A stretch of 51,173 bases of DNA from Eubacteriales bacterium (GTDB lineage: Bacteria > Bacillota > Clostridia > Oscillospirales > SIG627), in NCBI GenBank assembly GCA_045580105.1, contig JAZNNH010000043.1:1-51173 (forward strand), read 5' to 3'. The translations under genes were made by a program, and so were the position numbers. Below the pieces are notes generated by a model. That model was given only the letters and a program-made list of their open reading frames with translations, ran no database searches and was not told the DNA's origin. This document shows, piece by piece, positions 10,094 through 31,203 of the stretch. Positions within the stretch are counted from its first letter, which is position 1. Each line of letters opens with the position of its first letter.

Positions 10094-10296
10094 GCAGGGC
10101 TGCCGCCCCGCAGTTACTTTCTTTGAAAAAAAGTAACCAAAGAAACTTTCCGAATAAAAAGAAAAGGACTGGTATTTCCAGTCCTTTTTTCTTTTTATAT
10201 TGATCTATTACAGTTTTCTTTGTCACACTTTCTTTTTGAAAAGAAAGTGTGGGTTGAAGTTTTCTTTGCCTACTTTCTTTTTCAAAAGAAAGTAGG
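10094..10296 (+). repeat. modular palindromic repeat element, copy A (GC-rich head, inverted L unit, terminator module, two R hairpin units)
   Basis: gcagggctgccgccccgcag; L hairpin 10113-10137 plus caaagaaactttc; terminator 10162-10190; R hairpins 10224-10251 and 10269-10296, each preceded by agttttctttg. Confidence 0.85.
10162..10190. terminator. bidirectional intrinsic terminator carried inside repeat copy A
   Basis: A-run, GGACTGG-tattt-CCAGTCC, T6; sits between convergent tyrS and cysE. Confidence 0.75.
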
Positions 10297-11139
10297 TTAG
10301 TTTTGAGGGGGCGTGTAGTAGAGCGTTTTGCCGGCTTCCACGGAGCGGGTCAGCCAAACGGACGCGCCGATCACACAGCCGTCGCCCACGGTGGTGTCAC
10401 CGCCCAAAATGGTCGCGTTGGCGTAGATAATGACGTGGTTTCCGATATTGGGATGGCGCTTGAGATCCTTGATGGGATGACCGTTTTCATCCAGCTCGAA
10501 GCTCTTCGCACCCAGCGTCACACCCTGATAGAGCTTAACGTGGTCGCCGATCACGCAGGTTTCGCCCACAACGATACCGGTTCCGTGGTCAATGAAGAAA
10601 TACTCGCCGATGGTCGCACCCGCGTGAATATCGACACCCGTTTTTTCGTGTGCGTATTCGGTCATAATACGGGGGATCATGGGGATTTTGAGGGTGTAAA
10701 GCTCGTGCGCCAGTCGGTAAATGGAAATGGCGTAAAAGCCGGGGTAGCAAAGAAGAACTTCCTCGTGGCTCTTGGCGGCAGGGTCGCCTTGATAAATCGC
10801 TTCGATGTCCTTCATGAGAAGGGTTTTGATGTGAGGAAGCGTTTCCAAAAACGCGGCAGCGCTGATTTTTGCATCCGGCGCATCGGTCTGAAGGCGCGAC
10901 GCTTTTTCGATCAGCGTAATCAGTTCGTTTTCAATTTTTCGCAGTAGGGAAAGAGAGCTCAGTCCTTCCTGCGTGACGGAACGGCTCTTAAAATAGCCCG
11001 GGAATAAGAGGGATTGCAGATCTTTAATCAGATCGACCACTTCTTTTCGATTGGGCAAAAGCACGTCGCACTCTGCCTGCGCAATCTTGCTTTCCTTTCC
11101 GATTTGATCCAATCGGCTTTGAATGTCTTCCAGGTTCAT
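10297..11139 (-). CDS. cysE: serine O-acetyltransferase (long form)
   Basis: hexapeptide-repeat C-terminal half DIHAGATIGEYFFIDHGTGIVVGETCVIGDHVKLYQGVTLGA. Confidence 0.85.
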   Translation of the reverse strand: MNLEDIQSRLDQIGKESKIAQAECDVLLPNRKEVVDLIKDLQSLLFPGYFKSRSVTQEGLSSLSLLRKIENELITLIEKASRLQTDAPDAKISAAAFLETLPHIKTLLMKDIEAIYQGDPAAKSHEEVLLCYPGFYAISIYRLAHELYTLKIPMIPRIMTEYAHEKTGVDIHAGATIGEYFFIDHGTGIVVGETCVIGDHVKLYQGVTLGAKSFELDENGHPIKDLKRHPNIGNHVIIYANATILGGDTTVGDGCVIGASVWLTRSVEAGKTLYYTPPQN

Positions 11140-11166
11140 GGCACATCTCCGAAGTTGTTTTTTTTG

Positions 11167-11195
11167 ATTATACTATGCCAAGATTTTCTTGTCAA
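11167..11195 (-). promoter_or_regulatory. consensus sigma-A promoter for cysE
   Basis: minus strand TTGACA (11195-11190), 17 nt spacer, TATAAT (11172-11167). Confidence 0.7.
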
Positions 11196-11197
11196 TG

Positions 11198-11228
11198 AAA
11201 AAACAGCCCCCGAAACTTCGGGGGCTGT
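11198..11228 (-). terminator. intrinsic terminator downstream of spo0A
   Basis: minus strand CAGCCCCCGAA/TTCGGGGGCTG hairpin followed by T6; a second weaker hairpin lies at 11236-11268. Confidence 0.75.
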
Positions 11229-11269
11229 TTGATGAAAAAGCAGAAGCCGAGGGGAAAGCCCCTGCTTTT

Positions 11270-12031: not shown

Positions 12032-12081
12032 ATTCAACCCTTCCTTTTCAAAAAATACGTTCTTTCCCTTTCGGCGTTCTA

Positions 12082-12387: not shown

Positions 12388-12405
12388 CGGAACGAAAAGG
12401 GCTCT

Positions 12406-12506: not shown

Positions 12507-12512
12507 ACCTAT

Positions 12513-12750
12513 GATATAAAACACGAGGAAGAAGACAAGTACCTCTTCGACTTTTTTGCAAGAGAGCTGCCGGTTGGTGCAAGGCAGTCGAAAAGAGAGG
12601 AGGGAATACCCTTTGGAGTGGCTTTTCCGAAACAAAGTAGGAAAAGACGGGTGCGCCCGATACTGCGCTTTGAGACTGTCCTATGACAGTGAATATGAGG
12701 TGGTACCACGATTCTGTCGTCCTTGTGCTTATAGCTCAAGGGCGTTTTTT
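12513..12750 (+). promoter_or_regulatory. T-box riboswitch leader, probable Tyr (UAC) specifier
   Basis: AGUA 12538-12541; AGAGAG bulge 12561-12566; distal loop GGUUGGUGCAA 12572-12582; GAA-UAC 12604-12609; K-turn halves 12522-12529 and 12615-12620; T-box sequence AAUAUGAGGUGGUACCACG 12692-12710; terminator CGUCCUUG/CAAGGGCG plus U6 at 12718-12750. Confidence 0.85.
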
Positions 12751-12774
12751 GTTGGTACCCGAAAGGAAGTTTTT

Positions 12775-14406
12775 ATGGCGATTACTGATTTTTTGGAGCG
12801 CAACGCGCGCCTGTACGGACGGGAAACGGCTCTGGTGGAGCTCAATCCTACCGAGGAACGCGATCTGGGCGTGACTTGGCGCGATTTTAATCTGATTGAA
12901 GGAACTGCCGATGCCCCCTATCGCAGAGAATACACTTGGAGCGATTTTGACCGCAGAGCCAACCGCTTTGCCAATCTTCTTTTGAGCCGCGGATTTGAGC
13001 GCGGCACGAAGGTTGCCATTCTTTTGATGAATTGCCTCGAGTGGCTTCCCATCTATTTCGGCATTTTGAAGGCGGGCTGCATTGCGGTTCCCATGAATTT
13101 CCGCTATTCGAGCGCTGAGATCAAATACTGTTTGGAGCTGGCAGACGTATCCGCGCTGGTTTTCGGTCCGGAATTCATCACGCGGATGGATCCGGTCGTT
13201 CCCACGCTTTCGGAAGTCAAAACCTTTTTCTTCGTCGGAAAATCCACCCCGGCTTATGCCGAGGACTGTCTGAAGATCATGGGCTTTTGCTCCTCTTCCG
13301 CCCCGCCTGTCAAGCTCGAGGACGAGGACGTTGCCGCGATTTATTTTTCTTCGGGTACGACGGGATTTCCCAAGGCGATCCTGCACAATCACAGAGCGCT
13401 CGTGTCCTCTTGTGAAACCGAGCAGAACCACCACGGACAAACGCGCTCTGACGTCTTCCTTTGCATTCCGCCGCTGTATCATACGGGCGCGAAGATGCAC
13501 TGGTTCGGCTCACTCCTTTCCGCCGGCCGCGCGGTTCTGCTTCGCGGCGTCAAACCGGAATGGATTTTGCGCGCCGTGACGGAAGAAAAATGCACCATCG
13601 TATGGCTTTTGGTGCCGTGGGCGCAGGATATTCTGGATGCCATCGAGTCGGGAAAAATCAATCTCGAGGATTATTATCTGGATCAGTGGCGCTTGATGCA
13701 CATCGGCGCGCAGCCCGTGCCGCCGAGCTTGGTGCGCCGCTGGCAAAAGATTTTCCCGCGCCACGAGTACGATACCAACTACGGTCTTTCCGAATCCATC
13801 GGTCCTGGCTGTGTACATCTGGGTGTGGAAAACGTACATAAGGTGGGCGCCATCGGAAAACCCGGCTATCTGTGGGAAGCCAAGATCGTCGTGGGCGATC
13901 GCATTGCCGAAAAGGGCGAAGTGGGCGAGCTTTGCGTCAAAGGCCCCGGCGTGATGCTTTGTTATTATAAAAATCCGCAAGCCACCGAAGAAGTGTTAAA
14001 AGACGGTTGGCTCTATACCGGCGATATGGCAAAAGAAGACGAAGACGGTTTTCTGTATCTGGTCGATCGCAAGAAAGACGTTGTCATTTCCGGCGGAGAA
14101 AACATTTATCCCGTTCAGATCGAGGACTTTTTGCGCGGCCATGAAAAAATCAAGGACGTTGCGGTCATCGGTCTTCCCGACACCCGTCAGGGAGAGATCT
14201 GCGCGGCGATCATTGAACTCAAAGACGGCGAAGATTGCACGCAGGAAGAAATCGATGAATTTTGCACCGGTCTTCCTCGCTACAAGCGCCCCCGCAAGGT
14301 CTTTTTCGACAAGGTGCCCCGTAACCCCACCGGAAAGATCGAAAAGCCCGCTCTTCGTGAAAAATACTGCAAGGGTCGGCTGGTAGAAGCGCAAATCAAC
14401 GGATAG
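12775..14406 (+). CDS. AMP-dependent acyl-CoA synthetase/ligase (substrate unknown)
   Basis: YFSSGTTGFPKAILHNH AMP-binding motif, YGLSE, GWLYTGDMA, PRNPTGKIEK; start trimmed to MAITDF behind SD gaaaggaag. Confidence 0.85.
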   Translation: MAITDFLERNARLYGRETALVELNPTEERDLGVTWRDFNLIEGTADAPYRREYTWSDFDRRANRFANLLLSRGFERGTKVAILLMNCLEWLPIYFGILKAGCIAVPMNFRYSSAEIKYCLELADVSALVFGPEFITRMDPVVPTLSEVKTFFFVGKSTPAYAEDCLKIMGFCSSSAPPVKLEDEDVAAIYFSSGTTGFPKAILHNHRALVSSCETEQNHHGQTRSDVFLCIPPLYHTGAKMHWFGSLLSAGRAVLLRGVKPEWILRAVTEEKCTIVWLLVPWAQDILDAIESGKINLEDYYLDQWRLMHIGAQPVPPSLVRRWQKIFPRHEYDTNYGLSESIGPGCVHLGVENVHKVGAIGKPGYLWEAKIVVGDRIAEKGEVGELCVKGPGVMLCYYKNPQATEEVLKDGWLYTGDMAKEDEDGFLYLVDRKKDVVISGGENIYPVQIEDFLRGHEKIKDVAVIGLPDTRQGEICAAIIELKDGEDCTQEEIDEFCTGLPRYKRPRKVFFDKVPRNPTGKIEKPALREKYCKGRLVEAQING

Positions 14407-14417
14407 GAGTTGGGTGT

Positions 14418-15998
14418 ATGTTCATTAAAATTTCCATGCTGATCGTGTTTTTTTCCGTGATGATCGGCGTCGGCTTTTCCTGCCGCAAGCACGCCACGGA
14501 CGTGAACGGCTTTGTTTTGGGCGGCAGAAGCGTCGGCCCTTGGCTGACGGCGTTTGCCTACGGCACGTCTTATTTTTCCGCCGTGGTCTTCGTGGGCTAT
14601 GCCGGCCAGTTCGGCTGGAAATACGGCATTGCCGCCACGTGGGCGGGCATCGGAAACGCCCTGATCGGATCGCTCATGGCTTGGGCGATTTTGGGCAGAA
14701 GAACCAGAGTTATGACCCAGCATCTGGATTCGGCTACGATGCCGCAGTTTTTTCAGGCACGTTTGGATTCCAAGGGCTTAAAGCTTGCGTCCTCGGCTCT
14801 GATTTTCATTTTTATGATCCCGTATACCGCCTCGCTTTATAACGGCTTGAGCCGCCTTTTTGGAATGGCGTTCGGCATCGATTACACTTGGTGTGTCGTT
14901 GCGATGGCAATCCTGACGGGTGTTTACGTGACGGTGGGCGGCTATATGGCAACGGCGGTTAACGATTTTATTCAGGGCATTGTGATGCTCTTCGGAATCG
15001 TTTTGGTGATTGCCGCGGTTCTGCATACAAAGGGCGGCTTTACCGCCGCGCTCGATGCGCTTTCCCGCGTTTCCGATCCCACGGTTTCCTCCTCCCCCGG
15101 TGCGTTTGCCTCGTTCTTCGGACCGGATGGGAAGGGACTTGCGGGCGTGGTGATCCTCACTTCCTTGGGAACGTGGGGACTTCCGCAGATGGTGCAGAAG
15201 TTTTACGCCATCAAAAGCGAAAAGCAGATTAATAAAGGTATGATCATTTCCACCCTCTTTGCTCTGGTGGTTGCCGGCGGATGTTATTTTCTCGGCGGCT
15301 TCGGACGGCTGTTTTGCGACGGCGCCCTCGTGGCGAGGGAAGGGTACGATGCCATCATTCCCGCCATGCTCGAGCCCTTGCCCGATTTTCTGATCGCCAT
15401 TGTGGTGATCTTGGTTCTTTCGGCTTCCATGTCCACGCTTTCTTCCCTTGTGATGACCTCCAGCTCGACCTTGACGCTGGATTTTCTCAAGGGAAACGTG
15501 ATCCGGAATATGAAAGAAAAGACCCAGCTCTTGCTTTTGCGACTGCTTGTGGTTGTGTTTATTGCCATTTCCGCGGTCATCGCCATTTATCAAAGTTCGG
15601 CGGGCGGTGACGGCGTGAAGTATATTGCCCAGTTAATGGGCATTTCTTGGGGTGCGATGGCGGGCTCGTTCTTAGCTCCGTTTCTTTACGGCTTGTATTG
15701 GAAAGGGCTCACGCGCGCCGCGGTTTGGGTGAATATGCTCTTTTCCACCGCCGTGATGGTGGGCTGCATTTTGCCCGGTGTGAAGGAAATGTATCCTCCC
15801 TTCCTGCAATCGCCCATCAATGCCGGCGCGTTTTGTATGCTCGCAGGGCTTGTGATTACCCCGCTTGTCAGTTTGGTGACCAAAAAAACGGACAAAGCAA
15901 AAATCGAATCGGTGTTCTCTTGCTATGAACGCATGGTCACGGTTACCGTGAAAGATTCCATCGGAGAAGCCGCAGAAAGAAAAGGAGAAAGCAAATGA
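14418..15998 (+). CDS. sodium:solute symporter (SSS) family transporter
   Basis: 526 aa polytopic membrane protein with SSS-like N-terminal helices (GGRSVGPWLTAFAYGTSYFSAVVFVGYAG). Confidence 0.75.
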   Translation: MFIKISMLIVFFSVMIGVGFSCRKHATDVNGFVLGGRSVGPWLTAFAYGTSYFSAVVFVGYAGQFGWKYGIAATWAGIGNALIGSLMAWAILGRRTRVMTQHLDSATMPQFFQARLDSKGLKLASSALIFIFMIPYTASLYNGLSRLFGMAFGIDYTWCVVAMAILTGVYVTVGGYMATAVNDFIQGIVMLFGIVLVIAAVLHTKGGFTAALDALSRVSDPTVSSSPGAFASFFGPDGKGLAGVVILTSLGTWGLPQMVQKFYAIKSEKQINKGMIISTLFALVVAGGCYFLGGFGRLFCDGALVAREGYDAIIPAMLEPLPDFLIAIVVILVLSASMSTLSSLVMTSSSTLTLDFLKGNVIRNMKEKTQLLLLRLLVVVFIAISAVIAIYQSSAGGDGVKYIAQLMGISWGAMAGSFLAPFLYGLYWKGLTRAAVWVNMLFSTAVMVGCILPGVKEMYPPFLQSPINAGAFCMLAGLVITPLVSLVTKKTDKAKIESVFSCYERMVTVTVKDSIGEAAERKGESK

Positions 15999-17716
15999 AA
16001 AAATTGATGCTCGGCAACGAAGCGGTCGCCCGCGGTCTGTATGAGGCAGGGTGCAGCTTTGTTTCCAGTTACCCCGGTACGCCCAGTACCGAAATTACCG
16101 AGTGTGTCGCGCGCTACCCGGAAGTGTATGCCGAATGGGCGCCCAATGAAAAGGTTGCGATGGAATCCGCCTTCGGTGCAAGCTTGGCAGGCAAACGCAG
16201 TTTTTGCGGAATGAAACACGTCGGCTTGAACGTGGCGGCAGACCCGCTGTTTACCATGTCGTATACCGGTGTAAACGCCGGCTTTGTGATCGGTGTGGCA
16301 GACGACCCCGGCATGCATTCTTCTCAGAACGAGCAGGATTCCCGTCACTACGCAAGAGCCGCTAAAATGCCGATGCTCGAGCCCGCAAACTCCGAGGAAG
16401 CACGCAATTTTACCAAGATTGCGTTCGAAATTTCCGAGCAGTTCGACACGCCCGTTCTTCTGAAAATGTGTACGCGTATTGCCCATTCCCAGAGCATTGT
16501 GGAAGAGGGCGAGCGGGTGGAAGTGAAAAAAGAATACGAAAAGAACGGTCAAAAATACATTATGATGCCCGGCAACGCCAAGCGCCGTCACCCCATTGTG
16601 GAACAGCGCACCCGTGATCTGGTCGCGTTTGCGGAAGAGGACGACATCAACCGCATCGAAGATGGAAAAAATAAGAAAATGGGTATCATCACCTCCTCGA
16701 CTTCGTATCAGTACGTCAAAGAGGTGTTCGGAGACGAATATCCCGTTCTCAAACTGGGTATGATCTGGCCTTTGCCCGAACAAAAAATCATCTCCTTTGC
16801 CAAGAGTGTTGAAACGCTTGTGGTCGTAGAGGAGCTGGACTCCTTTATCGAGGAGCACTGCCGCAACCTCGGACTGGAAGTGGTCGGCAAGGAACTGTTT
16901 TCTCCCGTCGGCGAATTCAGCCAAAACGTTGTTGCCAAGGCGCTGGGCAAAGAAGAAGCGGTCGGCACGGCACTTTCGGAAGAAATTCCGCAAAGACCGC
17001 CCGTGATGTGTGCCGGCTGTCCCCACAGAGGACTGTTTTATACCTTAGCGAAAAATAAGATCACCGTTTTGGGTGATATCGGTTGTTACACGCTCGGTGC
17101 CGTGCCGCCGCTTTGCGCACTCGACAGCACCATTTGTATGGGCGCGAGCGTTTCGGGTCTGCACGGCTTTGTGAAAGCCCTCGAGGGCGCCGCCGACGGC
17201 AAGACGGTCGGTGTCATCGGCGATTCGACCTTTATGCATTCGGGTATGACCGGTCTTGTGAATATTGCCTATAACAATTCCAATGCCACCGTCATCATTT
17301 TGGATAACTCCATTACGGGTATGACCGGTCACCAGCAGAATCCCACCACCGGTAAGAACTTGAAGGGCGATCCTGCCGCCGCGGTCAATCTGGAAGAGCT
17401 TTGCCGCGCCATCGGCATCCGCCGCGTTCGCGTGGTCGATCCCTATCAGCTTTCCGAAACGGAAAACGCAATCAAAGAAGAATTGGCAGCTGCCGAGCCG
17501 TCTGTGATCATTTCCAGAAGACCCTGCGCACTGTTAAAATACGTCAAGCACGCAGGTCCCATCAAGGTCGATTCCGACAAGTGCCGTTCCTGCAAGGCCT
17601 GTATGAAGATCGGCTGTCCTGCCATCAGTATGAAAGACGGCAAGGCCGTGATTGATAACACCCTTTGTACCGGTTGCGGTGTTTGCACTCAGCTTTGTAA
17701 ATTCGGCGCACTGTGA
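15995..17716 (+). CDS. iorA: indolepyruvate (arylpyruvate):ferredoxin oxidoreductase alpha subunit
   Basis: MKKLMLGNEAVARGLYEAG...SSYPGTPSTEI, TPP motif GDSTFMHSG, C-terminal 2x[4Fe-4S] CRSCKACMKIGCP and CTGCGVCTQLC. Confidence 0.9.
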   Translation: MKKLMLGNEAVARGLYEAGCSFVSSYPGTPSTEITECVARYPEVYAEWAPNEKVAMESAFGASLAGKRSFCGMKHVGLNVAADPLFTMSYTGVNAGFVIGVADDPGMHSSQNEQDSRHYARAAKMPMLEPANSEEARNFTKIAFEISEQFDTPVLLKMCTRIAHSQSIVEEGERVEVKKEYEKNGQKYIMMPGNAKRRHPIVEQRTRDLVAFAEEDDINRIEDGKNKKMGIITSSTSYQYVKEVFGDEYPVLKLGMIWPLPEQKIISFAKSVETLVVVEELDSFIEEHCRNLGLEVVGKELFSPVGEFSQNVVAKALGKEEAVGTALSEEIPQRPPVMCAGCPHRGLFYTLAKNKITVLGDIGCYTLGAVPPLCALDSTICMGASVSGLHGFVKALEGAADGKTVGVIGDSTFMHSGMTGLVNIAYNNSNATVIILDNSITGMTGHQQNPTTGKNLKGDPAAAVNLEELCRAIGIRRVRVVDPYQLSETENAIKEELAAAEPSVIISRRPCALLKYVKHAGPIKVDSDKCRSCKACMKIGCPAISMKDGKAVIDNTLCTGCGVCTQLCKFGAL

Positions 17717-17732
17717 GAAAGGAGTAACTCAG

Positions 17733-18305
17733 ATGAAAACGAAAAATGTGATGATTGTCGGCGTGGGAGGACAGGGAAGTCTTCTGGCGTCCAAACTCTT
17801 GGGAAAACTCCTTTTGAGCCGTGGGTACGACGTGAAGGTATCGGAAGTGCACGGAATGAGCCAGCGCGGCGGAAGCGTGGTAACCTACGTTCGTTTCGGC
17901 GACGTGGTCTATTCTCCCGTGATTGATAAGGGGCAGGCCGATTTTATCGTGTCGTTTGAATTGCTGGAAGCGGCGCGCTGGACGGAGTATTTGCGAGAGG
18001 GTGGCGTGATTGTTTCCAACACCCAAAAAATCAATCCGATGCCGGTGATTATCGGGTCGGCACAGTACCCCGAAAACTTAGAGGGAAAGATTCGCGATGC
18101 CGGAATCCATCTGGAAACGCTCGATGCACTGGCGCTGGCAGAACAAGCCGGTAGTGCCAAGGCGGTGAATATCGTCTTGATGGGCAAGCTCTCCCGATTC
18201 TTTGATTTTTCTAAGGAAGAATGGATGGATGCCATTGCCCAAAGTGTACCTGAAAAGTTTTTGGAACTCAATCAAAAAGCTTTCCTGATGGGAAGAGAAG
18301 CATAA
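17733..18305 (+). CDS. iorB: indolepyruvate:ferredoxin oxidoreductase beta subunit
   Basis: MIVGVGGQGSLLASKLLG and SEVHGMSQRGGSV are typical of IorB / the 2-oxoacid oxidoreductase gamma domain; start trimmed. Confidence 0.85.
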   Translation: MKTKNVMIVGVGGQGSLLASKLLGKLLLSRGYDVKVSEVHGMSQRGGSVVTYVRFGDVVYSPVIDKGQADFIVSFELLEAARWTEYLREGGVIVSNTQKINPMPVIIGSAQYPENLEGKIRDAGIHLETLDALALAEQAGSAKAVNIVLMGKLSRFFDFSKEEWMDAIAQSVPEKFLELNQKAFLMGREA

Positions 18306-18317
18306 GAGGAGATTGAT

Positions 18318-19616
18318 ATGAAACGCTATTATCAACCCGAAATCGAAACCGCCTCGCAGGAACAGATCCTCGCTTGGCAAAATGAACGCCTTATCAAACA
18401 GGTTCAGCACGTGTGGGACAACGTTCCGTATTACCGCAAAAAAATGGAAGAAAAAGGCGTGACTCCTGCTGACATTACCGGAGTCAAAGACCTTCACAAA
18501 TTGCCGTTTCTGACCAAAGCAGACCTGCGCGACGCCTATCCTTACGGCCTGATGGGAAAACCCCTCAAGGACTGCGTGCGCATTCAGTCTACCTCCGGCA
18601 CCACCGGCAAGCGCGTGGTTGCGTTTTACACCCAAAAGGATCTTGACCTTTGGGAGGATTGCTGTGCCAGAGCCATTGTGGCTGTGGGCGGAAGTGAAGA
18701 AGACGTGTGTCAGGTGTGCTACGGCTATGGTCTGTTTACCGGCGGTCCGGGCTTAAACGGCGGCTCTCACAAGGTCGGCTGCTTGACGCTCCCGATGTCT
18801 TCGGGTAATACCGACCGTCAGCTTCAGTTTATGACCGATTTGGAAGCGACCATTATTTGCTGTACCCCCTCTTACGCAGCTTATCTTGCCGAGTCCATTC
18901 AAGAAAAAGGACTGCGCGACAAGATCAAGCTTAAAGCCGGCATTTTCGGGGCAGAGGCGTGGAGCGAAGAAATGCGCCGCGATATTGAATCCCAGCTCGG
19001 CATCAAGGCCTATGATATTTACGGCTTGACGGAAATTTCCGGCCCCGGCGTTGCCTTTGAATGTGAAGCGCAGACGGGAATGCACATCAACGAGGATCAC
19101 TTCATTGCAGAGATCATCGATCCCGATACGGGCGAGGTGTTGCCTGAGGGAGAAAAGGGCGAATTGGTGTTCACCTGTATTACCAAAGAAGCGTTCCCGC
19201 TTCTTCGTTACCGCACCCGCGATATTTGTGTTTTGACCCGCGAGCCCTGCCCCTGCGGAAGAACCCACGTGAAAATGTCCAAGCCCATGGGCAGAAGCGA
19301 CGATATGCTCATCATCAAGGGCGTGAACGTATTCCCCAGCCAGATCGAAACCGTTCTGTTGGAACAGGGGTATCCTGCCAACTATCAGATCATTGTGGAT
19401 CGCGTGAACAACGCCGATACCTTTGAGGTGCAGGTGGAAATGACACCCGAAATCTTCTCCGATTCCCTTTCGAATCTGGGTGCGTTGGAAAAAGGCCTTG
19501 TGAATGCACTCCATTCCATGCTCGGCATTTACGCCAAGGTGAAATTGGTTGCACCTAAGAGCATTGCCCGCAGTGAAGGCAAAGCGGTTCGAATCATTGA
19601 CAATCGTAAAATTTAA
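18318..19616 (+). CDS. paaK: phenylacetate-CoA ligase family (PaaK-like) enzyme
   Basis: 432 aa, STSGTTGKRVV, YGLTEISGPG, PLLRYRTRD; the usual partner of iorAB. Confidence 0.85.
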   Translation: MKRYYQPEIETASQEQILAWQNERLIKQVQHVWDNVPYYRKKMEEKGVTPADITGVKDLHKLPFLTKADLRDAYPYGLMGKPLKDCVRIQSTSGTTGKRVVAFYTQKDLDLWEDCCARAIVAVGGSEEDVCQVCYGYGLFTGGPGLNGGSHKVGCLTLPMSSGNTDRQLQFMTDLEATIICCTPSYAAYLAESIQEKGLRDKIKLKAGIFGAEAWSEEMRRDIESQLGIKAYDIYGLTEISGPGVAFECEAQTGMHINEDHFIAEIIDPDTGEVLPEGEKGELVFTCITKEAFPLLRYRTRDICVLTREPCPCGRTHVKMSKPMGRSDDMLIIKGVNVFPSQIETVLLEQGYPANYQIIVDRVNNADTFEVQVEMTPEIFSDSLSNLGALEKGLVNALHSMLGIYAKVKLVAPKSIARSEGKAVRIIDNRKI

Positions 19617-19629
19617 GGAGGAAGAAACG

Positions 19630-20064
19630 ATGAAGGGTATCCATCAGATTTCTGTTTTTATCGAAAACAAAAAAGGTTCTCTTTCTGAAATTACTCGCCT
19701 TTTGGCAGATAGCAAAATTAACTTGCGTGCCATCTCTATTGCAGAAAGTGCCGATTACGGTGTGCTTCGTCTGATTGCCGACGATGCCGAAAAAGCAACC
19801 TCCGTTCTTCTTTCCCACGGATTCATTCTTTCCATGACGCCCGTAACGGTCATTTCCGTGCCGGATGAGCCCGCCGGTCTTTCGCAGGTTCTTAATATTC
19901 TGACGCAGGCAGGGGTCGATATTGAATATATGTATTCTCTGTTTACCCACCAGAACGGAAAAGCGTATATGGTGTTCCGTATTTCCGATCAAGAGGAATT
20001 TGAAAAAATGGTCACCGGGCAAAACCTTTCGGTGACCACCAAAGAAGAACTGGGCTTGATTTAA
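19630..20064 (+). CDS. tandem ACT-domain protein
   Basis: two ACT-like units (ISVFIENKKGSLSEITRLLADSKINL and VISVPDEPAGLSQVLNILTQAGVDI); start trimmed to MKGIHQ behind ggagg. Confidence 0.8.
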   Translation: MKGIHQISVFIENKKGSLSEITRLLADSKINLRAISIAESADYGVLRLIADDAEKATSVLLSHGFILSMTPVTVISVPDEPAGLSQVLNILTQAGVDIEYMYSLFTHQNGKAYMVFRISDQEEFEKMVTGQNLSVTTKEELGLI

Positions 20065-20076
20065 GTTATAGAGCAC

Positions 20077-20293
20077 GCAGGGCTGCCGCCCCGCACCCTG
20101 CAGTTCCTTTCTTTGGAAAGATGGGAACCAAAGAAACTTTCATAATAAAAAGTAAAAAAAGGACTGATTATTTCAGTCCTTTTTATTATTTTTATATTTC
20201 CCCATTCGAGTTTTTCTTTGCTTACTTTCTTTTTTCAAAAAGAAAGTAAGAAGCTTTCTTTGGCTTACCTTTCTTTTCCAAAAGAAAGGTAAG
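20077..20293 (+). repeat. modular palindromic repeat element, copy B
   Basis: head hairpin gcaggg...ccctgc 20077-20101; L hairpin 20103-20128 plus caaagaaactttc; terminator GGACTGA-ttatt-TCAGTCC 20161-20184; R hairpins 20221-20250 and 20264-20293. Confidence 0.85.
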
Positions 20294-20977
20294 TTATTCT
20301 TGGGGCTCCTGCACGGGCGATTGCGTCGGAACGTGGCTTAAGAGAGCGCCGTATTCAAAGAGATAAGACAGCGCAAAGAGAACAAAGCCCCAGAGAATGG
20401 TTTCGAGATTCACGTTGGTTTCCCCGAGAAGAAGCGTGCCTTTGCCGTGTGTCAAAAGAGCAATGAGTGTGGAGCAAACCGCGGGCGCACCGGCAAGGAA
20501 AAAGAGGGAAATGCCGGCACATTTGAGGTCCTTTGCCGCCTGAGAGGTAAAGGGAGAAAGCTGGGCTTCTTTGATGGAAGCGGCAACGCGGGAAAGGTAG
20601 CGATAGAAGAAAAAGAGAACGATCATTTCGGCAAACGTGGGAATGATCGACAGCGCCAAGGTGTGGTTTTCGGCGGACGCGATGGGCGTTTCCTCAACGA
20701 TACGAAATCCGTTTTCGGTCACTTCCAAGCCCTCGGTCTCTTGCCCGGAAAGCGATTGTTTTACCTCGTCAAACGCCTCTCCGACAAGGGCGCGAAGATC
20801 AAATTCCATATCGACCTTCGTTTCGGTGCGGAAGACAACCGTGTCCCGCGGCAAAAACGAAAGCGATAAAACGCCGATGAAAATGCCGACGGCACCGATG
20901 ATGCACAGCACCTTCAAAATGGAAAAAACCACTTGGCAGGCAGAGGCAACGGAACGAATGAATTTGGTTTTGTTCAT
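20294..20977 (-). CDS. membrane protein, DUF2975-like
   Basis: N-terminal TM, about 3 C-terminal TMs, LSPFTSQAAKDLK resembles the DUF2975 PFT motif; SD aaaggag before MNKTKF. Confidence 0.55.
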   Translation of the reverse strand: MNKTKFIRSVASACQVVFSILKVLCIIGAVGIFIGVLSLSFLPRDTVVFRTETKVDMEFDLRALVGEAFDEVKQSLSGQETEGLEVTENGFRIVEETPIASAENHTLALSIIPTFAEMIVLFFFYRYLSRVAASIKEAQLSPFTSQAAKDLKCAGISLFFLAGAPAVCSTLIALLTHGKGTLLLGETNVNLETILWGFVLFALSYLFEYGALLSHVPTQSPVQEPQE

Positions 20978-21084: not shown

Positions 21085-21480
21085 ATGGATGAAAGAATGA
21101 CAAGCTTGAAAGAGCAGGTAAAAAAGGGAAGCATCCCCGCGGCGTTTTCCTTGGCAGAAGCGCTGAAATGGGGGTATTACGGAGAGACCGACCCGATGCG
21201 CGCCGCCAGAATGTATCGCATTTGCTGTCGGGCAAAGGATAAAAAAATGAGCGCCGCCGGCTTTTTAAACCTCGGCATTTTGTATTATTACGGATACCTT
21301 TCCGACGGAAGCGAGCCGGAGAAGGACGCCAAAAACGCCTTTTCCTGCTTTCTGAAAAGCGCCTTGACCTATCCGAATAAGGATGCGCTTTCCCGTCTTG
21401 GTGATATGTACCGCTACGGGCAGTACGTGCCCAAAAACGAAGGTGTTGCGCTTTCGCTTTATCTTAAGGCAAATGCTTGA
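21085..21480 (+). CDS. Sel1-like (SLR/TPR) repeat protein
   Basis: repeated A..WY/YY..G motifs (ALKWGYYGE, LGILYYYGY, LGDMYRYGQYVPKN); start trimmed to MDERM. Confidence 0.65.
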   Translation: MDERMTSLKEQVKKGSIPAAFSLAEALKWGYYGETDPMRAARMYRICCRAKDKKMSAAGFLNLGILYYYGYLSDGSEPEKDAKNAFSCFLKSALTYPNKDALSRLGDMYRYGQYVPKNEGVALSLYLKANA

Positions 21481-21820
21481 GGGTGATCTTCTTTAAGAAA
21501 AGATCCAAATTGGCTTTTGGATGGAACACAAAATCTTCTTTTTCTATGCTCGGCAGGAGGGTGGAAAGAAGTGTGGGATTTAAAATAAGCGCTTCTTTTT
21601 CGCTTTTTTTCAAGGTTTTAATGGCATATTCCAATCGGGACGCCTCGGCGCGGGATGCGCTGGACCAAAGTGCGGCAAGCGAAGAAATTTTTCGCGCACG
21701 GGTAAACTTGGCGCTTTTTTTGCCTTGTTTTGCGTGGTCAGCCATGCGAGAAAACATATTTTTGGCAATTCCCGTGTAAAGCGCGCCGCCCTCGACGCGG
21801 AGAATATAGGTATAATACAT
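21464..21820 (-). CDS. GIY-YIG domain protein (UPF0213/YhbQ-like)
   Basis: MYYTYILRVEGGALYTGIAKNMFSRMADH...RLEYAIKTLKKSEK; SD aaaaaggag; 17-nt convergent overlap with the previous CDS. Confidence 0.75.
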   Translation of the reverse strand: MYYTYILRVEGGALYTGIAKNMFSRMADHAKQGKKSAKFTRARKISSLAALWSSASRAEASRLEYAIKTLKKSEKEALILNPTLLSTLLPSIEKEDFVFHPKANLDLFLKKITLKHLP

Positions 21821-21948
21821 ATTCTGCTCCTTTTTTTCATTGTAACACAAAGATTGGCTGACTACAAGAAAAAAAGTGAAACTGGTCATTGTAATCGCCC
21901 AAAATTTTTGTTACACTCGTTTCATCAAAGGAAAAAGAGGACGATCGG

Positions 21949-22797: not shown

Positions 22798-22827
22798 AGA
22801 AAAAAAGAGGCAACGCCTCTTTTTTTT
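22798..22827. terminator. bidirectional intrinsic terminator
   Basis: A-run, AGAGGC-aac-GCCTCT, T8; lies between convergent pdxK and the DUF1836 gene. Confidence 0.7.
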
Positions 22828-23398
22828 ATGCCTTTTTCTTTTCTTTTTTCTTTTCCTTTTTGGTTTCCTTCTCTTTTTCCTTTTGCTTTTCCTCGGTTAA
22901 GGGTTTCGGCCACGTTTGTTCCGCCAAGCGAAACGTTCCGCGGGCGTAAAGAATGGAAGCGAATGCCATAATTGCCGTTTGCAGGGCTTTTTCGGTCGGA
23001 TTCTCCGCTTTCGGCTTTTCCTCTTCTTTGCCGAATACGGTGCTGACAGCCCGATCCAACTCTTCGGAAAAGAGGGTGTAAACCTCTTCATCCGTTCGCT
23101 CGGCGGCAAGACTGTCAAGAAGCGCCGCAATCTCGGAAAGCTGCATAAAGCTTTTTAAAATGCAGATCATGAAAAGCTTGGTGATTTGTCCCTTGGTGTA
23201 GCGCTTGTTCTGCGGCGGGGGAAGCAGTTTTTGCTTCACGTAGTTGTTGATCATTGTCGAAGTGATCGCTTTTTCCCCCGGAAAATACGGCGAAAGGGTC
23301 TTTTCCAGTACGGAAATTACCTGATCCATATACAGTTCAATATCAGGAAAATCAATCCACTGCGGTGCCGCAGACGGACAAAGAATGTCAGAATCCAT
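22826..23398 (-). CDS. DUF1836 family protein with Lys/Glu-rich tail
   Basis: ITSTMINNYVKQKLLPPPQNKRYTKGQITKLFMICILK matches my memory of DUF1836; tail EEKQKEKEKETKKEKKKEKKKA. Confidence 0.7.
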   Translation of the reverse strand: MDSDILCPSAAPQWIDFPDIELYMDQVISVLEKTLSPYFPGEKAITSTMINNYVKQKLLPPPQNKRYTKGQITKLFMICILKSFMQLSEIAALLDSLAAERTDEEVYTLFSEELDRAVSTVFGKEEEKPKAENPTEKALQTAIMAFASILYARGTFRLAEQTWPKPLTEEKQKEKEKETKKEKKKEKKKA

Positions 23399-25270: not shown

Positions 25271-25447
25271 TTGGAACCTTTTGAAAAAGGTTCCAAACCT
25301 CCAAAACGTTCCTTTCTTTGAAAAGAAAGGAACCAAAGAAACTTTCCGAAAGGAAGAACAAAAAAGGACTGATTTTTCAGTCCTTTTTTATTATATTACC
25401 CATTACAAAGTTTTCTTTGGCTTACCTTTCTTTTGAAAAAAGGTAAG
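25271..25447 (+). repeat. modular palindromic repeat element, copy C
   Basis: 26-nt perfect palindrome 25271-25296; L hairpin 25308-25333 plus caaagaaactttc; terminator GGACTGA-tttt-TCAGTCC-T6 25366-25389; R hairpin 25421-25447. Confidence 0.85.
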
Positions 25448-27445: not shown

Positions 27446-27682
27446 CACACCCCATTAGAGTTTTTGTAAACTTGTGAGGAAACACCCCATTACAGTTTTC
27501 TTTGTCAAACTTTCTTTTTTAAAAGAAAGTTTGAAGCTTTTCTTTGCTTACTTTCTTTAAATGATTGTGGGGAAGCACTTCCAGTTTAGCTTTTCTTTGC
27601 TTACTTTCTTTAAATGATTGTGGGGAAGCACTTCCAGTTTAGTTTTTCTTTGCTTACTTTCTTTTTTCAAAAAGAAAGTAAG
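27446..27682 (+). repeat. modular palindromic repeat element, copy D (no terminator module; contains a 53-nt tandem duplication)
   Basis: acaccccatta[g/c]agtttt twice (27447, 27482); R hairpin 27505-27534; perfect 53-nt copies at 27537-27589 and 27590-27642; R hairpin 27653-27682. Confidence 0.9.
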
Positions 27683-28707: not shown

Positions 28708-28724
28708 AAGAAATAGGGGACAGT

Positions 28725-30815
28725 ATGATCAACGTGCCTGAAATTTTCGGATCGAAAGTATTTAACGATCCGGTGATGAAACAATATCTGCCTGCCGAGG
28801 TGTACGAATCTCTCAAAAACACCGTGGCAAGGGGAGAAACCTTAAATTCTGAAATTGCCGATGCCGTTGCCAAGGGAATGAAAGAATGGGCACTGAGTTT
28901 AGGTGCTACGCATTTTACCCATTGGTTCCAGCCCATGACCGGTACCACTGCGGAAAAGCACGATTCATTCGTGCGCCCCGTCAACGACAGCCAGATCATG
29001 ATGGCCTTTTCCGGCAAGAATCTGATCTCCGGTGAAGCAGACGCCTCTTCTTTCCCCTCCGGCGGTCTGCGCGCCACCTTCGAGGCGCGCGGCTATTCTG
29101 CTTGGGACCCCACGTCCTACGCGTTCGTCAAGGACAATACCCTTTGCATCCCCACGGCGTTCTGTTCCTATCGCGGGGAGAGCTTGGATAAAAAAACACC
29201 GCTCTTGCGCTCGCAAGAGGCGATCGACCGCGAAGCGCGTCGTCTGCTGGCTCTGTTCGGCATGACCGACGTGAAGCGCGTTCACGCGGAAGTGGGTGCG
29301 GAGCAGGAGTATTTTCTCATCGACGATGAAATGTGGAGCCGCCGTCCCGACTTGGTGTATTGCGGCAGAACGCTGTTCGGCGCACGCCCCCCCAAGGGTC
29401 AGGAAATGAACGACCACTACTACGGTCAGATCAAGCCGCGCGTGCTTGCCTTTATGCAGGAATTGGACGAGGAGCTTTGGAAACTGGGAATCCTTGCCAA
29501 TACGGAGCACAACGAGGTTGCCCCCGCACAGCACGAATTGGCACCGATTTATTCGACGGTGAATATCGCAACCGATCACAACCAGTTGACCATGGAAATG
29601 ATGAAGAAGATCGCCGCCCGCCACGGCTTGGCGTGCCTGCTTCACGAAAAGCCCTTTGCGACGGTCAACGGTAGCGGTAAACATAATAACTGGTCCATTT
29701 CTACCGATACGGGCGTGCCCCTGCTCAAGCCCGGCAAGACCCCCTCGCAGAACGCACTGTTTCTCTTGATTCTCACCGCAGTGATCAAAGCGGTGGACGA
29801 AAACCAGGATCTGCTTCGCATTTCCGTTGCCGACGCCGGCAACGACCATCGTTTGGGTGGAAACGAAGCACCTCCCGCCGTACTTTCCATTTTCCTTGGC
29901 TCTGAATTGGAAGCCATTTTGGAAGATATTATGGCAGGCGAAAAGCCGGAAGACCGCCCGAAGACAAAACTCAATATCGGTGCATCGGTTCTGCCCGTGC
30001 TTCGCTGTGACAGTACCGACCGAAACCGTACCAGCCCCTTTGCCTTTACCGGTAATAAATTCGAGTTCCGTATGCCCGGTTCTTCTTGCTCGATCGCTTG
30101 TCCCAATATGATCATGAACACCATCGTTGCCGAGGCACTGTCTCAGTTTTCGGATATTTTAGAACAAAGTCAGGATTTCCACTCCGACTTGAACAAGCTC
30201 ATTCACGATACCCTGATCCGTCACCGTCGGATTATTTTCAACGGTGATAACTATTCGGCTCAGTGGCGGGAAGAGGTCAAAAAGAGAGGGCTTCTCAATT
30301 TTTCCAATACCGTGGAGGCCATTCCGCATTATACCGACGAAAAGAACGTCGCGATGTTCGAAAAGCACAAGGTGCTCTCCCGCGCGGAGATTGCTTCCCG
30401 ACAGGAAGTGCTTTTGGAAAACTACGCCAAGAGTATTCGCGTGGAATGTCTGACGATGGTAGACTTGACCCGCAAGGATATTATCCCTGCTGTGGTTCGT
30501 TATCAGAATTTCCTGTTGCAGGAGAGAAAAGCAAAGGAAAGCGTCGGTGCGCTTTCGACCAAGTTGGAAGACCGTTTGTTGCGTGACGTTTCCGATTTGA
30601 GTGAAACCCTCTTTGTGCGTTTGGAAAAGCTGGAAGAAGATGCCGAAAAGGCGAAAGAGCCCACCGATGCCCTCGCCCTTGCCGTCTATTCCAGAGAAGT
30701 CTTGTTCCGCGATATGACCTTGCTGCGAGAGGTGATCGACCGACTCGAAAGCATTGTGGCACGTGAGTTTTGGCCGTTCCCGACCTATGCGGAGATTTTG
30801 TATAGCGTAAAATAA
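28725..30815 (+). CDS. glnN: glutamine synthetase type III
   Basis: 696 aa; N-terminal FGSKVFNDPVMKQYLP, catalytic EVAPAQHELAP and NGSGKHNNWS motifs. Confidence 0.9.
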   Translation: MINVPEIFGSKVFNDPVMKQYLPAEVYESLKNTVARGETLNSEIADAVAKGMKEWALSLGATHFTHWFQPMTGTTAEKHDSFVRPVNDSQIMMAFSGKNLISGEADASSFPSGGLRATFEARGYSAWDPTSYAFVKDNTLCIPTAFCSYRGESLDKKTPLLRSQEAIDREARRLLALFGMTDVKRVHAEVGAEQEYFLIDDEMWSRRPDLVYCGRTLFGARPPKGQEMNDHYYGQIKPRVLAFMQELDEELWKLGILANTEHNEVAPAQHELAPIYSTVNIATDHNQLTMEMMKKIAARHGLACLLHEKPFATVNGSGKHNNWSISTDTGVPLLKPGKTPSQNALFLLILTAVIKAVDENQDLLRISVADAGNDHRLGGNEAPPAVLSIFLGSELEAILEDIMAGEKPEDRPKTKLNIGASVLPVLRCDSTDRNRTSPFAFTGNKFEFRMPGSSCSIACPNMIMNTIVAEALSQFSDILEQSQDFHSDLNKLIHDTLIRHRRIIFNGDNYSAQWREEVKKRGLLNFSNTVEAIPHYTDEKNVAMFEKHKVLSRAEIASRQEVLLENYAKSIRVECLTMVDLTRKDIIPAVVRYQNFLLQERKAKESVGALSTKLEDRLLRDVSDLSETLFVRLEKLEEDAEKAKEPTDALALAVYSREVLFRDMTLLREVIDRLESIVAREFWPFPTYAEILYSVK

Positions 30816-30974
30816 TTCTGCTCGATAAAATCCGCTGCGGCTTTGTCAAACAGCGCGCGGGGCTCGGTTATTTACGAAAAGTAAACGTCCATCGCCTCCT
30901 TGCTTGTTTTCCTCGCCTCGCTGAATTTTCTCTTCGCAGAAAAAATCCAAATACTTTTGCATTCAAAAAGCAAA

Positions 30975-31203
30975 ACAAAAAAGGACTGATTTTTTCAGTC
31001 CTTTTTTTGCACCTTTTTGAAAAAAGGAGCAAACCCCAAAAACTTTCGGAATGGAAAACAAATCATTCTCTATTACCGTTTTCTTTGTCACACTTTCTTT
31101 TCCAAAGGAAAGTGTGGTTTGAAGTTTTCTTTGAATTTGTTGTGGAGGGCACGTTCAGTATAGTTTTCTTTGGCTTACCTTTCTTTTTCAAAAGAAAGGT
31201 AAG
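30975..31203 (+). repeat. modular palindromic repeat element, copy E (module order permuted: terminator first)
   Basis: terminator GGACTGA-ttttt-TCAGTCC-T7 30983-31008; palindrome 31009-31030; ccaaaaactttc; R hairpin 31089-31116; hairpin-less unit 31121-31163; R hairpin 31174-31203. Confidence 0.85.

Follow-up and report, generated by a model that had tools for sequence, protein, structure and literature searches.

The REP and BIME sequences of Enterobacteria and Pseudomonas, which are mobilised by RAYT, are imperfect intergenic palindromes of about 40 nt; they occur as inverted pairs and mosaics, often between convergent genes, and their stems vary with compensation. Pneumococcal BOX elements (boxA-boxB(n)-boxC, Streptococcus) are modular; they vary in the number of their tandem units, internal or terminal, and fold into strong secondary structures. 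The Correia and RUP elements are MITEs carrying terminators or hairpins; elements of this type are small, non-autonomous and intergenic, have inverted ends, and can act as sources of terminators or ribosome-binding sites. Potential intrastrand triplex (PIT) repeats, including E. coli BoxC (TMECO), are short, dispersed, intergenic and multi-copy in many genomes (Hoyne and Maher 2000; Holder et al. 2015, PMC4666352). They consist of three consecutive blocks on the same strand, two of which form a hairpin while the third carries a Hoogsteen-type code with mirror symmetry, and their stems are conserved while their loops are free. In ENE/MALAT1 two U-rich strands clamp an A-rich strand, the U.A-U triads being broken by one C+.G-C, and ENE-like elements are also found in transposable-element RNAs (PMC13541005). 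The repeat which we describe here shares these traits, those of BOX in architecture only and by description, and those of ENE/MALAT1 as a potential. Judged by its sequence, its closest known kind would be the PIT repeats.

The repeat lies in the window, that is, the whole 51-kb stretch of DNA analysed, which comes from a Clostridia MAG and encodes Spo0A. Five intergenic gaps between positions 10094 and 31203 are mosaics assembled from a common set of modules, namely GC-rich head hairpins, units of tail plus hairpin in either orientation, intrinsic terminators acting in both directions, and one to four units in tandem. The core of about 42 bases is a hairpin with a T-rich tail, from which a three-stranded helix could form. 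The modules are as follows.

10094..10112, unstranded: GC-rich head hairpin GCAGGGCTGCCGCCCCGCA, copy A; module also in the relatives L121 and L191
10113..10150, minus: L unit A, hairpin (10113-10137) plus tail CAAAGAAACTTTC, an R-type unit on the minus strand
10160..10190, unstranded: terminator A, bidirectional intrinsic, stem GGACTGG with A-run and T-run
10212..10252, plus: R unit A1, tail AGTTTTCTTTG, lower stem TCACA/TGTGG, upper stem CTTTCTTTT/AAAAGAAAG
10258..10296, plus: R unit A2, hairpin end adjoining the cysE TTA stop (10297)
20077..20095, unstranded: GC-rich head hairpin, copy B
20103..20141, minus: L unit B, degenerate hairpin plus tail CAAAGAAACTTTC
20154..20186, unstranded: terminator B, bidirectional, stem GGACTGA
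20209..20250, plus: R unit B1, T5 tail with A5 stem
20252..20293, plus: R unit B2, lower stem GCTTAC/GTAAG, adjoining the stop codon at 20294
25271..25307, minus: extra L-type unit of a sister subfamily, hairpin TTGGAACCTTT..AAAGGTTCCAA plus tail ACCTCCAAAAC
25308..25346, minus: L unit C, hairpin GTTCCTTTCTT..AAGAAAGGAAC plus tail CAAAGAAACTTTC
25357..25392, unstranded: terminator C, bidirectional, stem GGACTGA
25409..25447, plus: R unit C1, adjoining the hisS stop at 25448
27450..27493, plus: degenerate lead-in CCCCATTAGAGTTTTTG ... CCCCATTAC, left end of array D
27494..27534, plus: R unit D1, lower stem TCAAA/TTTGA
27535..27640, plus: two truncated units of 53 nt each, 100% identical, tail plus half-hairpin plus 29-nt X module
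27641..27682, plus: R unit D4, whose hairpin 3' end is the Shine-Dalgarno (GTAAGGAG) of asnA
30977..31007, unstranded: terminator E, bidirectional, stem GGACTGA
31009..31049, minus: degenerate L-type unit, copy E, hairpin GCACCTTTTTGAAAAAAGGAGC plus tail AAACCCCAAAAACTTTCGG
31077..31117, plus: R unit E1, 92% identity to A1
31123..31161, plus: unit without hairpin, copy E, tail AGTTTTCTTTG plus X module
31162..31203, plus: R unit E3, 96% identity to B2, adjoining the stop codon at 31204
10212, 10258, 20209, 20252, 25409, plus: R-type tail starts, copies A-C
27494, 27535, 27588, 27641, 31077, 31123, 31162, plus: R-type tail starts, copies D-E

With at most one mismatch the R-unit motif AGTTTTCTTTG matches the window 13 times against 2.5 expected, and eight of the 13 lie inside the five gaps, all eight on the + strand. 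R-type tails, T5 and CT3 variants included, number 12 across the gaps; a hairpin of 12-15 bp follows in nine. The terminator AAGGACTG..CAGTCCTT is found at 10164, 20159, 25365 and 30981 (chance expectation 0), and on both strands its four modules score terminator-like and show the GC-containing stem and subsequent T-run of an intrinsic (rho-independent) terminator; some R hairpins also score terminator-like. The head GCAGGGCTGCCGCCCCGCA occurs at 10094 and 20077. Three L units (10113-10150, 20103-20141, 25308-25346) are the reverse complement of R units, tail included, and two more L-type units (25271-25307, 31009-31049) belong to a sister subfamily, the second having a homologue in L121 and L125, where it lies downstream of GS-III. 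When composite A is folded, the L tail pairs with one of the R tails, enclosing the terminator (z = -10.8 for each strand); the element as such is quasi-palindromic, with the terminator at its centre. The first-pass annotation had the five gaps built from the same modules, the L unit as the reverse complement of the R unit, inner arms able to pair around the terminator and a window free of transposases, all of which re-examination bears out. Neither the gaps nor 12 carrier loci matched any Rfam covariance model at the gathering score, the sub-threshold hits (E up to 5) being noise.

The flanking genes are convergent at four of the five gaps, and in all four the last R hairpin touches, with 0 nt between, the TTA (reverse-strand TAA stop) of the minus-strand gene. 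The same orientation of all copies had been read as a sign of single-strand mobilisation. Since four gaps are convergent and the element is quasi-palindromic around its terminator, this uniformity is nearly forced and carries little information.

The unit begins with a 5' pyrimidine tail (T4-5 C T3), followed by one G, a lower stem of 4-6 bp, the upper stem CTTTCTTTT/AAAAGAAAG and the loop; units start with TTTCTTTG. The tail repeats the upper-stem pyrimidine strand in mirror image and not directly (in the window, tail T4CT3 with stem T3CT4/A4GA3), a feature which the earlier reading had missed. The three strands co-vary: both T5 tails in the window occur with A5 stems, and in a sister family in L121 the tail TTTCTTCG stands over the purine strand AAAGAAGG. 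In viral contigs, for which the rule had been predicted beforehand, the mirror tail TTCTTTTG accompanies the asymmetric stem CTTTTCTT/AAGAAAAG at 18 loci in about eight contexts, and the direct-repeat tail, which is also the version able to form Watson-Crick pairs with the purine strand, at 0. Another mirror/direct pair gave 1 against 0 loci, which is nearly uninformative; a local count of 7-mers gave 98 mirror against 29 direct. The linker is G in 26 loci versus 6 for the other three bases combined. Lower stems are 3-6 bp long among the scanned loci, with 75% of positions paired against 44% after shuffling and 36 distinct fully paired stems; those in the window differ from one another (TCACA, CCTA, CTTA, GCTTAC, TCAAA). 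Because single-unit MFE folds leave the tail unpaired and its complement lies within 300 nt in just 8 of 132 units, the tail is not kept for ordinary pairing.

Under the triad code of PMC7015867, the mirror tail, single G and variable but compensating lower stem together correspond to the predicted signature of an intrastrand Y.R-Y triple helix (T.A-T, C+.G-C). The potential triad run is 7-9, the loop of the hairpin has 2-6 nt, and the second loop consists of the G and 4-6 nt paired to the 3' flank; this would agree with the run of at least 6-8 triads and short loops (1-6 nt) expected of such structures. The three blocks of intrastrand triplex repeats, a Watson-Crick pair and a third block in Hoogsteen code with the correct polarity, can likewise be recognised. 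In sister units with tail TTTTGAGGG and stem GGGAACTTTT the code fits over only 5 positions. The C+.G-C triad requires protonation.

PIT repeats carry coupled triplex classes on their two strands, and the R-sense strand of the unit would fall into class IV and its complement into class II, the class of BoxC. BoxC is G/C-rich, whereas the unit is A/T-rich (T.A-T plus one C+.G-C). E. coli BoxC itself is not represented here, its consensus (CCCTCNCCC N3-6 GGGNGAGGG N3 GGGNGAGGG) being absent and the unit sequence unrelated. Unlike the described PIT cases, the loop between third strand and duplex itself pairs with the 3' flank as the lower stem, with a single-G bridge; unlike BoxC, the unit ranges well outside the Proteobacteria, to archaea, phages and a giant virus, and its copies in the window form part of an inverted composite centred on a terminator. 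The BOX/REP likeness seen in the first-pass annotation stands for architecture and fails on the GTAG/CGTC tag, which is absent here and which PMC3733652 gives as the defining feature of REPs. REP sequences are moreover lineage-specific, whereas the unit sequence recurs across phyla and keeps an 8-nt mirror-repeat tail, and no associated Y1 transposase was seen, the window lacking one and no protein recurring beside 120 loci. In contrast to pneumococcal BOX, the host belongs to the Clostridia, the modules are others, and tandem units stand at one end by the gene stop, not between boxA and boxC. ENE/MALAT1 acts in one transcript orientation on an A-rich strand which is the 3' tail of the transcript; that of the unit is internal to the hairpin. 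What is new here is the unit anatomy. The trait by which the unit is best defined, its mirror-repeat tail consistent with an intrastrand triplex, is absent from the BOX/REP/RAYT picture.

Collection scans, which accepted exact motifs alone, place the exact unit at more than 120 genome loci in many phyla of bacteria and archaea, including DPANN/CPR genomes, and at 26 viral loci, among them about 15 copies in one NCLDV (giant-virus) MAG as well as copies in phages. Because exact motifs were required, the cross-domain occurrence may reflect not homology but convergence, the space of possible sequences being tiny (a T-rich 7-mer with a single C). Units of the same type are found in many other Clostridia MAGs and far beyond, in keeping with the dispersed modular family with inverted, hairpin-bearing ends proposed at first. 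Vescimonas sanitatis MH37-1 and Rheinheimera sp. 4Y26 are examples of complete genomes with many units. Solitary units are commonest elsewhere, and a metagenome-collection scan for the composite of L tail and GGACTG terminator gave only chance matches. The hairpin faces the nearest gene in 94 collection loci and the tail in 32, and in about 10 cases, drawn from several phyla, hairpin and stop codon are immediate neighbours. The arrangement seen most frequently is an L-sense unit that immediately follows a stop codon (66 versus 26). Between co-directional genes 31 units are R-sense and 29 L-sense, so that outside the window orientation relative to transcription is unbiased.

Five relatives have an empty comEB-asnA gap of 9-39 nt; in the window its length is 257 nt, and L191, with 383 nt, has a different subfamily there. 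Since it is empty in five relatives and differently occupied in the sixth, the elements were gained independently; a presence/absence difference between related species exists at this one gap. This is the sole gap with empty-site comparisons, and no target-site duplication is seen there. No transposase or autonomous element for the repeat was found; the window lacks a transposase, and no protein recurs beside the 120 loci.

We favour, at a probability of roughly 55%, a modular intergenic repeat whose unit is a potential intrastrand triple helix and which has spread as small DNA modules. Its bidirectional intrinsic terminator lies between inverted tail-plus-hairpin units, to which further tandem units and GC-rich head hairpins are added. 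Within a single strand the tail could run along the purine strand, parallel to it in the major groove, and give about seven T.A-T triads plus a C+.G-C triad; the complementary strand would offer a purine-motif equivalent. The three-stranded fold is probably the property under selection. Units may spread as small non-autonomous or recombinogenic DNA modules which settle at gene boundaries, hairpin towards the gene, where they would be tolerated, or useful as terminator carriers and structural barriers to polymerases or nucleases.

An RNA element selected by the host, in which the U-rich tail would clamp the A-rich 3' hairpin strand (U.A-U, C+.G-C) and protect RNA ends as a compact ENE/MALAT1 analogue, we consider rather unlikely. 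A linker of 1 nt spanning 4-6 bp is plausible in A-form RNA (cf. pseudoknot loop 1) and less so in B-DNA, and a mechanism free of host factors would account for occurrence in all domains and viruses. R-sense copies lie in the rRNA operon spacers of L034 and L061, and 27 distinct ones just upstream of a Shine-Dalgarno and start codon; according to PMC4666352, RNA forms intrastrand triplexes of the pyrimidine motif but not those of the purine motif. Against this reading stand the balanced orientation between co-directional genes, the prevalence of L-sense units after stop codons, the position of R-sense units beyond the terminator in four of the five window gaps, and downstream genes which are unrelated to one another. 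Linker geometry and orientation are opposing hints, towards A-form RNA and DNA respectively. As orientation relative to transcription is unbiased, DNA is slightly favoured as the folding strand. Mobilisation as single-stranded DNA by a Y1 HUH transposase (RAYT or IS200-type tnpA) encoded elsewhere in the genome, as first suggested for these REP/BIME-like elements, appears unlikely. It would suit a hairpin with a conserved 5' flank, inverted pairs and tandem arrays in intergenic DNA, 12 R-sense units on the strand with positive GC skew, and gain and loss between species at one gap. The tag is missing, however, no protein recurs beside the 120 loci, no part for the mirror-repeat rule is known in HUH recognition, and the unit is present in giant-virus and DPANN/CPR genomes; the window lacks a Y1 gene, a weak point as RAYT is usually single-copy. 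An IS200/IS605-derived PATE or MITE, for which same-orientation subterminal hairpins without terminal inverted repeats are expected, was rejected, the L unit being the reverse complement of R.

Ordinary MITEs with terminal inverted repeats of about 45 bp, moved by a DDE transposase and with an incidental mirror tail, are quite unlikely. The composite does have inverted ends with the hairpins outermost, genes are faced by the hairpin side, and different subfamilies independently entered the same gap. Yet neither a TA nor any other target duplication is seen at the one informative gap, most units elsewhere are solitary (8 of 132 have an inverted partner), tandem single-end arrays, which are atypical of MITEs, dominate there with them, and the mirror rule survived a prediction test. 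That there is no special element, only AT-rich terminator-like hairpins and low-complexity T/A runs multiplied by local duplication, is very improbable and largely refuted. Low complexity, the terminator-like scores of some R hairpins and the failure to find the exact composite in the metagenome collection speak for it; against it are motif counts far above shuffled expectation, the recurrence of an identical unit, its lower stems compensating, at over 120 unrelated loci, the mirror-to-direct ratio of 18 to 0 and the enriched G linker.

Beyond the triplex-forming DNA module which we favour, we would tentatively entertain a wider possibility, namely a natural triple-helix module, constrained in sequence and common to bacteria, archaea, phages and giant viruses. 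It would be near-invariant since three strands must co-vary, and might cap RNA ends without a host factor or be recognised by a mobilising activity. If true, this would be the first dispersed triple-helix element with three-way covariation support for in vivo folding outside riboswitches, introns and eukaryotic ENEs.

Five intergenic gaps, at 10094-10296, 20077-20293, 25271-25447, 27446-27682 and 30975-31203 (A to E), hold a modular repeat arranged around a terminator, in which the repeated unit is a hairpin with the potential to form a triplex. On reading the gaps, all the shared modules listed in the first-pass annotation were found. The modules are a head hairpin, an L unit, a bidirectional terminator and one to four tandem R units; the R unit consists of a 5' pyrimidine tail, a G linker, a lower stem, and an upper stem with its loop. 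The motif AGTTTTCTTTG (≤1 mismatch) has 13 matches in the window (2.5 expected), and the eight inside the gaps are all on the plus strand. Twelve R-type tails are present, including T5 and CT3 variants, and nine are followed by a hairpin of 12-15 bp. The terminator stem GGACTG(A/G), flanked by A- and T-runs, was found four times (0 expected), and these modules score as terminators on both strands. The pairing of the arms around the terminator, which had been proposed, is seen in the predicted fold of composite A, where the tails are paired (z = -10.8 on either strand). The L unit was described as the reverse complement of the R unit, which holds for three units, listed here with two of a sister subfamily.

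L-type units in the gaps
10113-10150: L unit A, reverse complement of R units
20103-20141: L unit B, reverse complement of R units
25308-25346: L unit C, reverse complement of R units
25271-25307: L-type unit, sister subfamily
31009-31049: L-type unit, sister subfamily

Array D, in gap D upstream of asnA, has four units, the last hairpin of which supplies the asnA Shine-Dalgarno sequence. Positions 27535-27640 are an exact 53-nt tandem duplication, each copy consisting of a tail with half a hairpin and an X module of 29 nt, which recurs, diverged, at 31134-31161. Arrays of lineage-specific 60-80-nt modules, each ending in (A)AGTTTTCTTTG and with a hairpin after the last only, occur at four loci of other genomes (L035, L036, L059, L086), and the same pattern is found at 31123-31203 of the window. 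The head hairpin (10094-10112; in the relatives L121, 13463-13560, and L191, 760-900) contains a G.T wobble when read on the R-sense strand, where the opposite strand has an A.C mismatch, an asymmetry constant across every copy and species seen; in relatives this GC-rich hairpin forms tandem 36-nt arrays. A plain terminator at 51084-51114 (stem AGACTAA/TCAGTCT) resembles the GGACTGA terminator of the family and has no flanking units.

The window, housekeeping DNA from an uncultured spore-forming member of the Clostridia, contains a T-box, Spo0A, AddAB, tyrS, hisS and asnA, and a glutamine synthetase of type III; an exact-protein lookup of one gene returned no record. The T-box leader (12517-12727, 132 bits) does not precede an aminoacyl-tRNA ligase gene; it heads an operon (12556-20064) for an AMP-binding enzyme, an SSF symporter, an IorA/IorB-like oxidoreductase, a PaaK-like ligase and an ACT-domain protein. 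Between copies B and C a small ORF (21464-21889, minus strand) encodes a GIY-YIG nuclease domain; no link between it and the repeats was found. The T/C-rich run at 22822-22897 (period about 12 nt) codes on its minus strand for the C-terminal end, rich in Lys and Glu, of a DUF1836 protein. Over 49000-51173 the GC content falls from about 0.50 to 0.36-0.37; this region, with DUF6591-type ORFs, may be acquired DNA.

Convergent genes flank four of the five gaps, and the composite is a quasi-palindrome centred on the shared bidirectional terminator, so that the 3' regions of both genes read hairpin, purine tail, terminator. The final R hairpin of each of the four convergent gaps runs straight into TTA, which is the minus-strand gene's stop codon. 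The claim that the five copies share one orientation is almost uninformative, since both convergent genes meet an equivalent 3' module order.

In the window the unit has a T4CT3 tail and a T3CT4 5' stem strand, the two T5 tails go with A5 stems, and in L121 the tail TTTCTTCG stands over the purine strand AAAGAAGG. Being a mirror repeat of the homopyrimidine strand, the tail matches the requirement of a parallel Hoogsteen third strand under the triad code T.A-T and C+.G-C (PMC7015867). The prediction, set beforehand and scanned in viral loci, was that a stem lacking mirror symmetry should carry the mirror tail only.

Tails of non-mirror-symmetric stems in viral loci
Stem CTTTTCTT/AAGAAAAG, mirror tail TTCTTTTG: 18 loci in about 8 contexts, lower stems again complementary
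Stem CTTTTCTT/AAGAAAAG, direct tail TTTTCTTG (also capable of Watson-Crick pairing with the purine strand): 0 loci
Stem CTTCTTTT/AAAAGAAG, mirror tail TTTTCTTG: 1 locus
Stem CTTCTTTT/AAAAGAAG, direct tail TTCTTTTG: 0 loci

The second stem, at 1 versus 0, has too few matches to add weight. Relative to the main family the 18 loci have one more T in the tail, one more T in the stem strand and one more A in the purine strand, all at the linker-proximal end, a three-way co-variation. Across the loci collected, mirror 7-mers number 98 and direct ones 29, of which 18 derive from the symmetric core. The linker base is G in 26 loci versus 6 for the three other bases combined, and the lower stem measures 3-6 bp; a 7-9 class was rejected as mostly one phage coding region without complementarity. 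The bases left free by the genome scan pattern, TTTCTTTG-N4-6-CTTTCTTT-N4-6-AAAGAAAG, form a complementary lower stem in most copies, with 83 distinct combinations (36 distinct ones fully paired) and pairing of 75% versus 44% with shuffled partners. Wobble asymmetry in this stem is uninformative as an indicator of the folding strand (T.G 43, C.A 42).

Alternatively, the tail might pair with the purine strand in Watson-Crick fashion. This was rejected: the tail able to do so gave no matches, and a partner tail lies nearby in few units. The tail is unpaired in secondary-structure predictions of single units, and only 8 of 132 units have a complement to it within 300 nt, so ordinary pairing does not explain its conservation. 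Comparative evidence, from the mirror-rule test, the insertions occurring together in all three strands and the constraint on linker and lower-stem length, argues for selection on a third strand.

The unit is not a local family: with one genome per species, its pattern occurs at at least 120 genome loci. Carriers among the matches listed are Oscillospiraceae and other Clostridia, Thermodesulfobacteriota (many copies per MAG), Lysobacterales and other Proteobacteria, Bacteroidota, Lentisphaerota, Nitrospirota, Campylobacterota, CPR bacteria and DPANN archaea. Carriers with complete genomes include Vescimonas sanitatis MH37-1, Rheinheimera sp. 4Y26, Lacisediminimonas profundi, the Bacteroidota MAG OY970334 and Candidatus Marinarcus CP182357. 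Viral contigs contain a further 26 loci, about 15 of these copies being in a giant-virus MAG, some as 44-nt tandem arrays (as at L143); this MAG encodes a poxvirus-type poly(A) polymerase, and at its locus L127 (6056-7175) an HNH endonuclease ORF begins 17 nt past a unit. The collection scans used exact motifs only, so all counts are lower bounds, and with the very small sequence space homology and convergence of the copies are inseparable. No Rfam family matched the window or 12 carrier loci at gathering and E-value thresholds, and the 22 metagenome loci matching the composite (L tail plus GGACTG terminator) were all chance matches within coding DNA. In Lacisediminimonas a unit lies within each arm of about 150 nt of an inverted-repeat element of about 650 nt, and a conserved, GC-rich hairpin (GCCGGGGTGTCTCCCGGC) comes after it. 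Conserved flanks of an analogous kind, among them terminator-like hairpins upstream, are found in Lysobacterales and Rheinheimera; the loci concerned are L052 (920-1560), L081 and L119.

The first-pass annotation looked to orthologous gaps for presence/absence polymorphism, which is found between comEB and asnA.

The comEB-asnA gap
L121, L124, L125, L192 and L193 (relatives, AsnA 83-90% identical): 9-39 nt, empty
Window: 257 nt, R-unit array
L191 (relative): 383 nt, a different subfamily with four heads, hairpin CCAAACTTTTTT..AAAAAAGTTTGG and tail ATCAAAAAACTTTAAG

The elements of the window and L191 are independent gains at one site, with no target duplication visible there. Downstream of the gene for glutamine synthetase, the window, L121 and L125 have in common an L-type unit whose tail is CCCCAAAAACTTTCG, so some copies are old. 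Sister subfamilies in relatives have a common plan with different stems and terminators. The mobilisation proposed earlier, by HUH enzymes of RAYT type, is possible; no result of the analysis supports it. The window has no transposase, as had been stated, and clustering the ORFs within 2.5 kb of a unit (120 matches listed) gave no transposase and no recurrent neighbour. Three inverted pairs of units were considered as flanking cargo and rejected, a mobilisation gene being absent from each: ribosomal and his genes lie between the pair at L093, an HTH/ImmA-type pair at L020, and small unknown ORFs at L092. The units may rather have spread as small modules, non-autonomous or recombinogenic.

Placement was scored for 179 units by the side adjoining a gene boundary.

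Units at gene boundaries
Hairpin side, stop of an other-strand gene (≤80 nt): 66
Hairpin side, start of a same-strand gene (≤60 nt): 28
Tail side, gene stop (≤80 nt): 26
Tail side, gene start (≤60 nt): 6

Hairpin and stop codon are exactly adjacent in about 10 cases, which come from several phyla. Units also adjoin 5S rRNA and tRNA genes. In two Clostridia MAGs (L034, about 196-240; L061, about 394-440) a unit lies directly upstream of the 5' end of the 5S rRNA gene, and being within the rRNA operon is transcribed in the R-sense. Units lie immediately beside tRNA genes or 3' fragments of tRNAs at L042, L142, L064 and L051; the hairpin at L142 overlaps the tRNA CCA end on the opposite strand, and in L064, a nanoarchaeal MAG, the unit alternates with repeated tRNA 3' fragments. 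A gene-specific 5'UTR regulator was rejected, the 20 downstream proteins scanned being unrelated (among them β-lactamase-fold, MupG, CitG/X, YchF, ATP synthase, SecDF, SerRS, terminase and tape-measure proteins). Between co-directional genes 31 units are R-sense and 29 L-sense, which with the unrelated downstream genes argues against such a regulator and against any function in a single transcript orientation. The placement fits units that form the outer termini of DNA elements, or a role needing the hairpin alone.

Beyond what the comparisons demonstrate, namely the anatomy, the mirror and three-way co-variation, the lower-stem compensation, the wide distribution and the independent gains, we infer that the selected property is the three-stranded fold, and that at gene boundaries the units would carry terminators and form structural barriers. 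The lack of bias in transcript orientation slightly favours DNA over RNA as the folding strand; by analogy with pseudoknot geometry, the one-nucleotide linker would suit A-form RNA better.

We know of no function assigned to the bacterial intrastrand triplexes studied to date (BoxC/TMECO). Intrastrand triplex repeats are a described kind (PMC4666352), and BoxC of E. coli (PIT, TMECO) is a G/C-rich purine-motif element with thousands of copies in Proteobacteria, folding shown in vitro and a link to genomic instability (PMC4666352). In the PIT scheme of that paper (PMC4666352) the R-sense strand of the A/T-rich unit is class IV (Hoogsteen, pyrimidine, purine), whereas the complementary strand is class II, that of BoxC. 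Pyrimidine-motif intrastrand triplexes also form in RNA, whereas purine-motif ones do not (PMC4666352). Among prokaryotic RNA triple helices, a 2026 review names only those of riboswitches and group II introns (PMC13541005). Sequence- and topic-based literature searches returned intrastrand-triplex papers, but no description of the A/T-rich unit, its single-nucleotide-bridged lower stem or its distribution.

The folding and relevance of intrastrand triplexes and H-DNA in living cells is a long-standing question, for which the unit is a simple 45-nt object of study. If the cross-domain copies are homologous, this would be an unusually promiscuous small element; if convergent, it would mark a structural solution favoured for hairpins at gene boundaries. 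In terms of annotation, the composites provide terminators, hairpins beside stop codons and once, at asnA, a ribosome-binding site.
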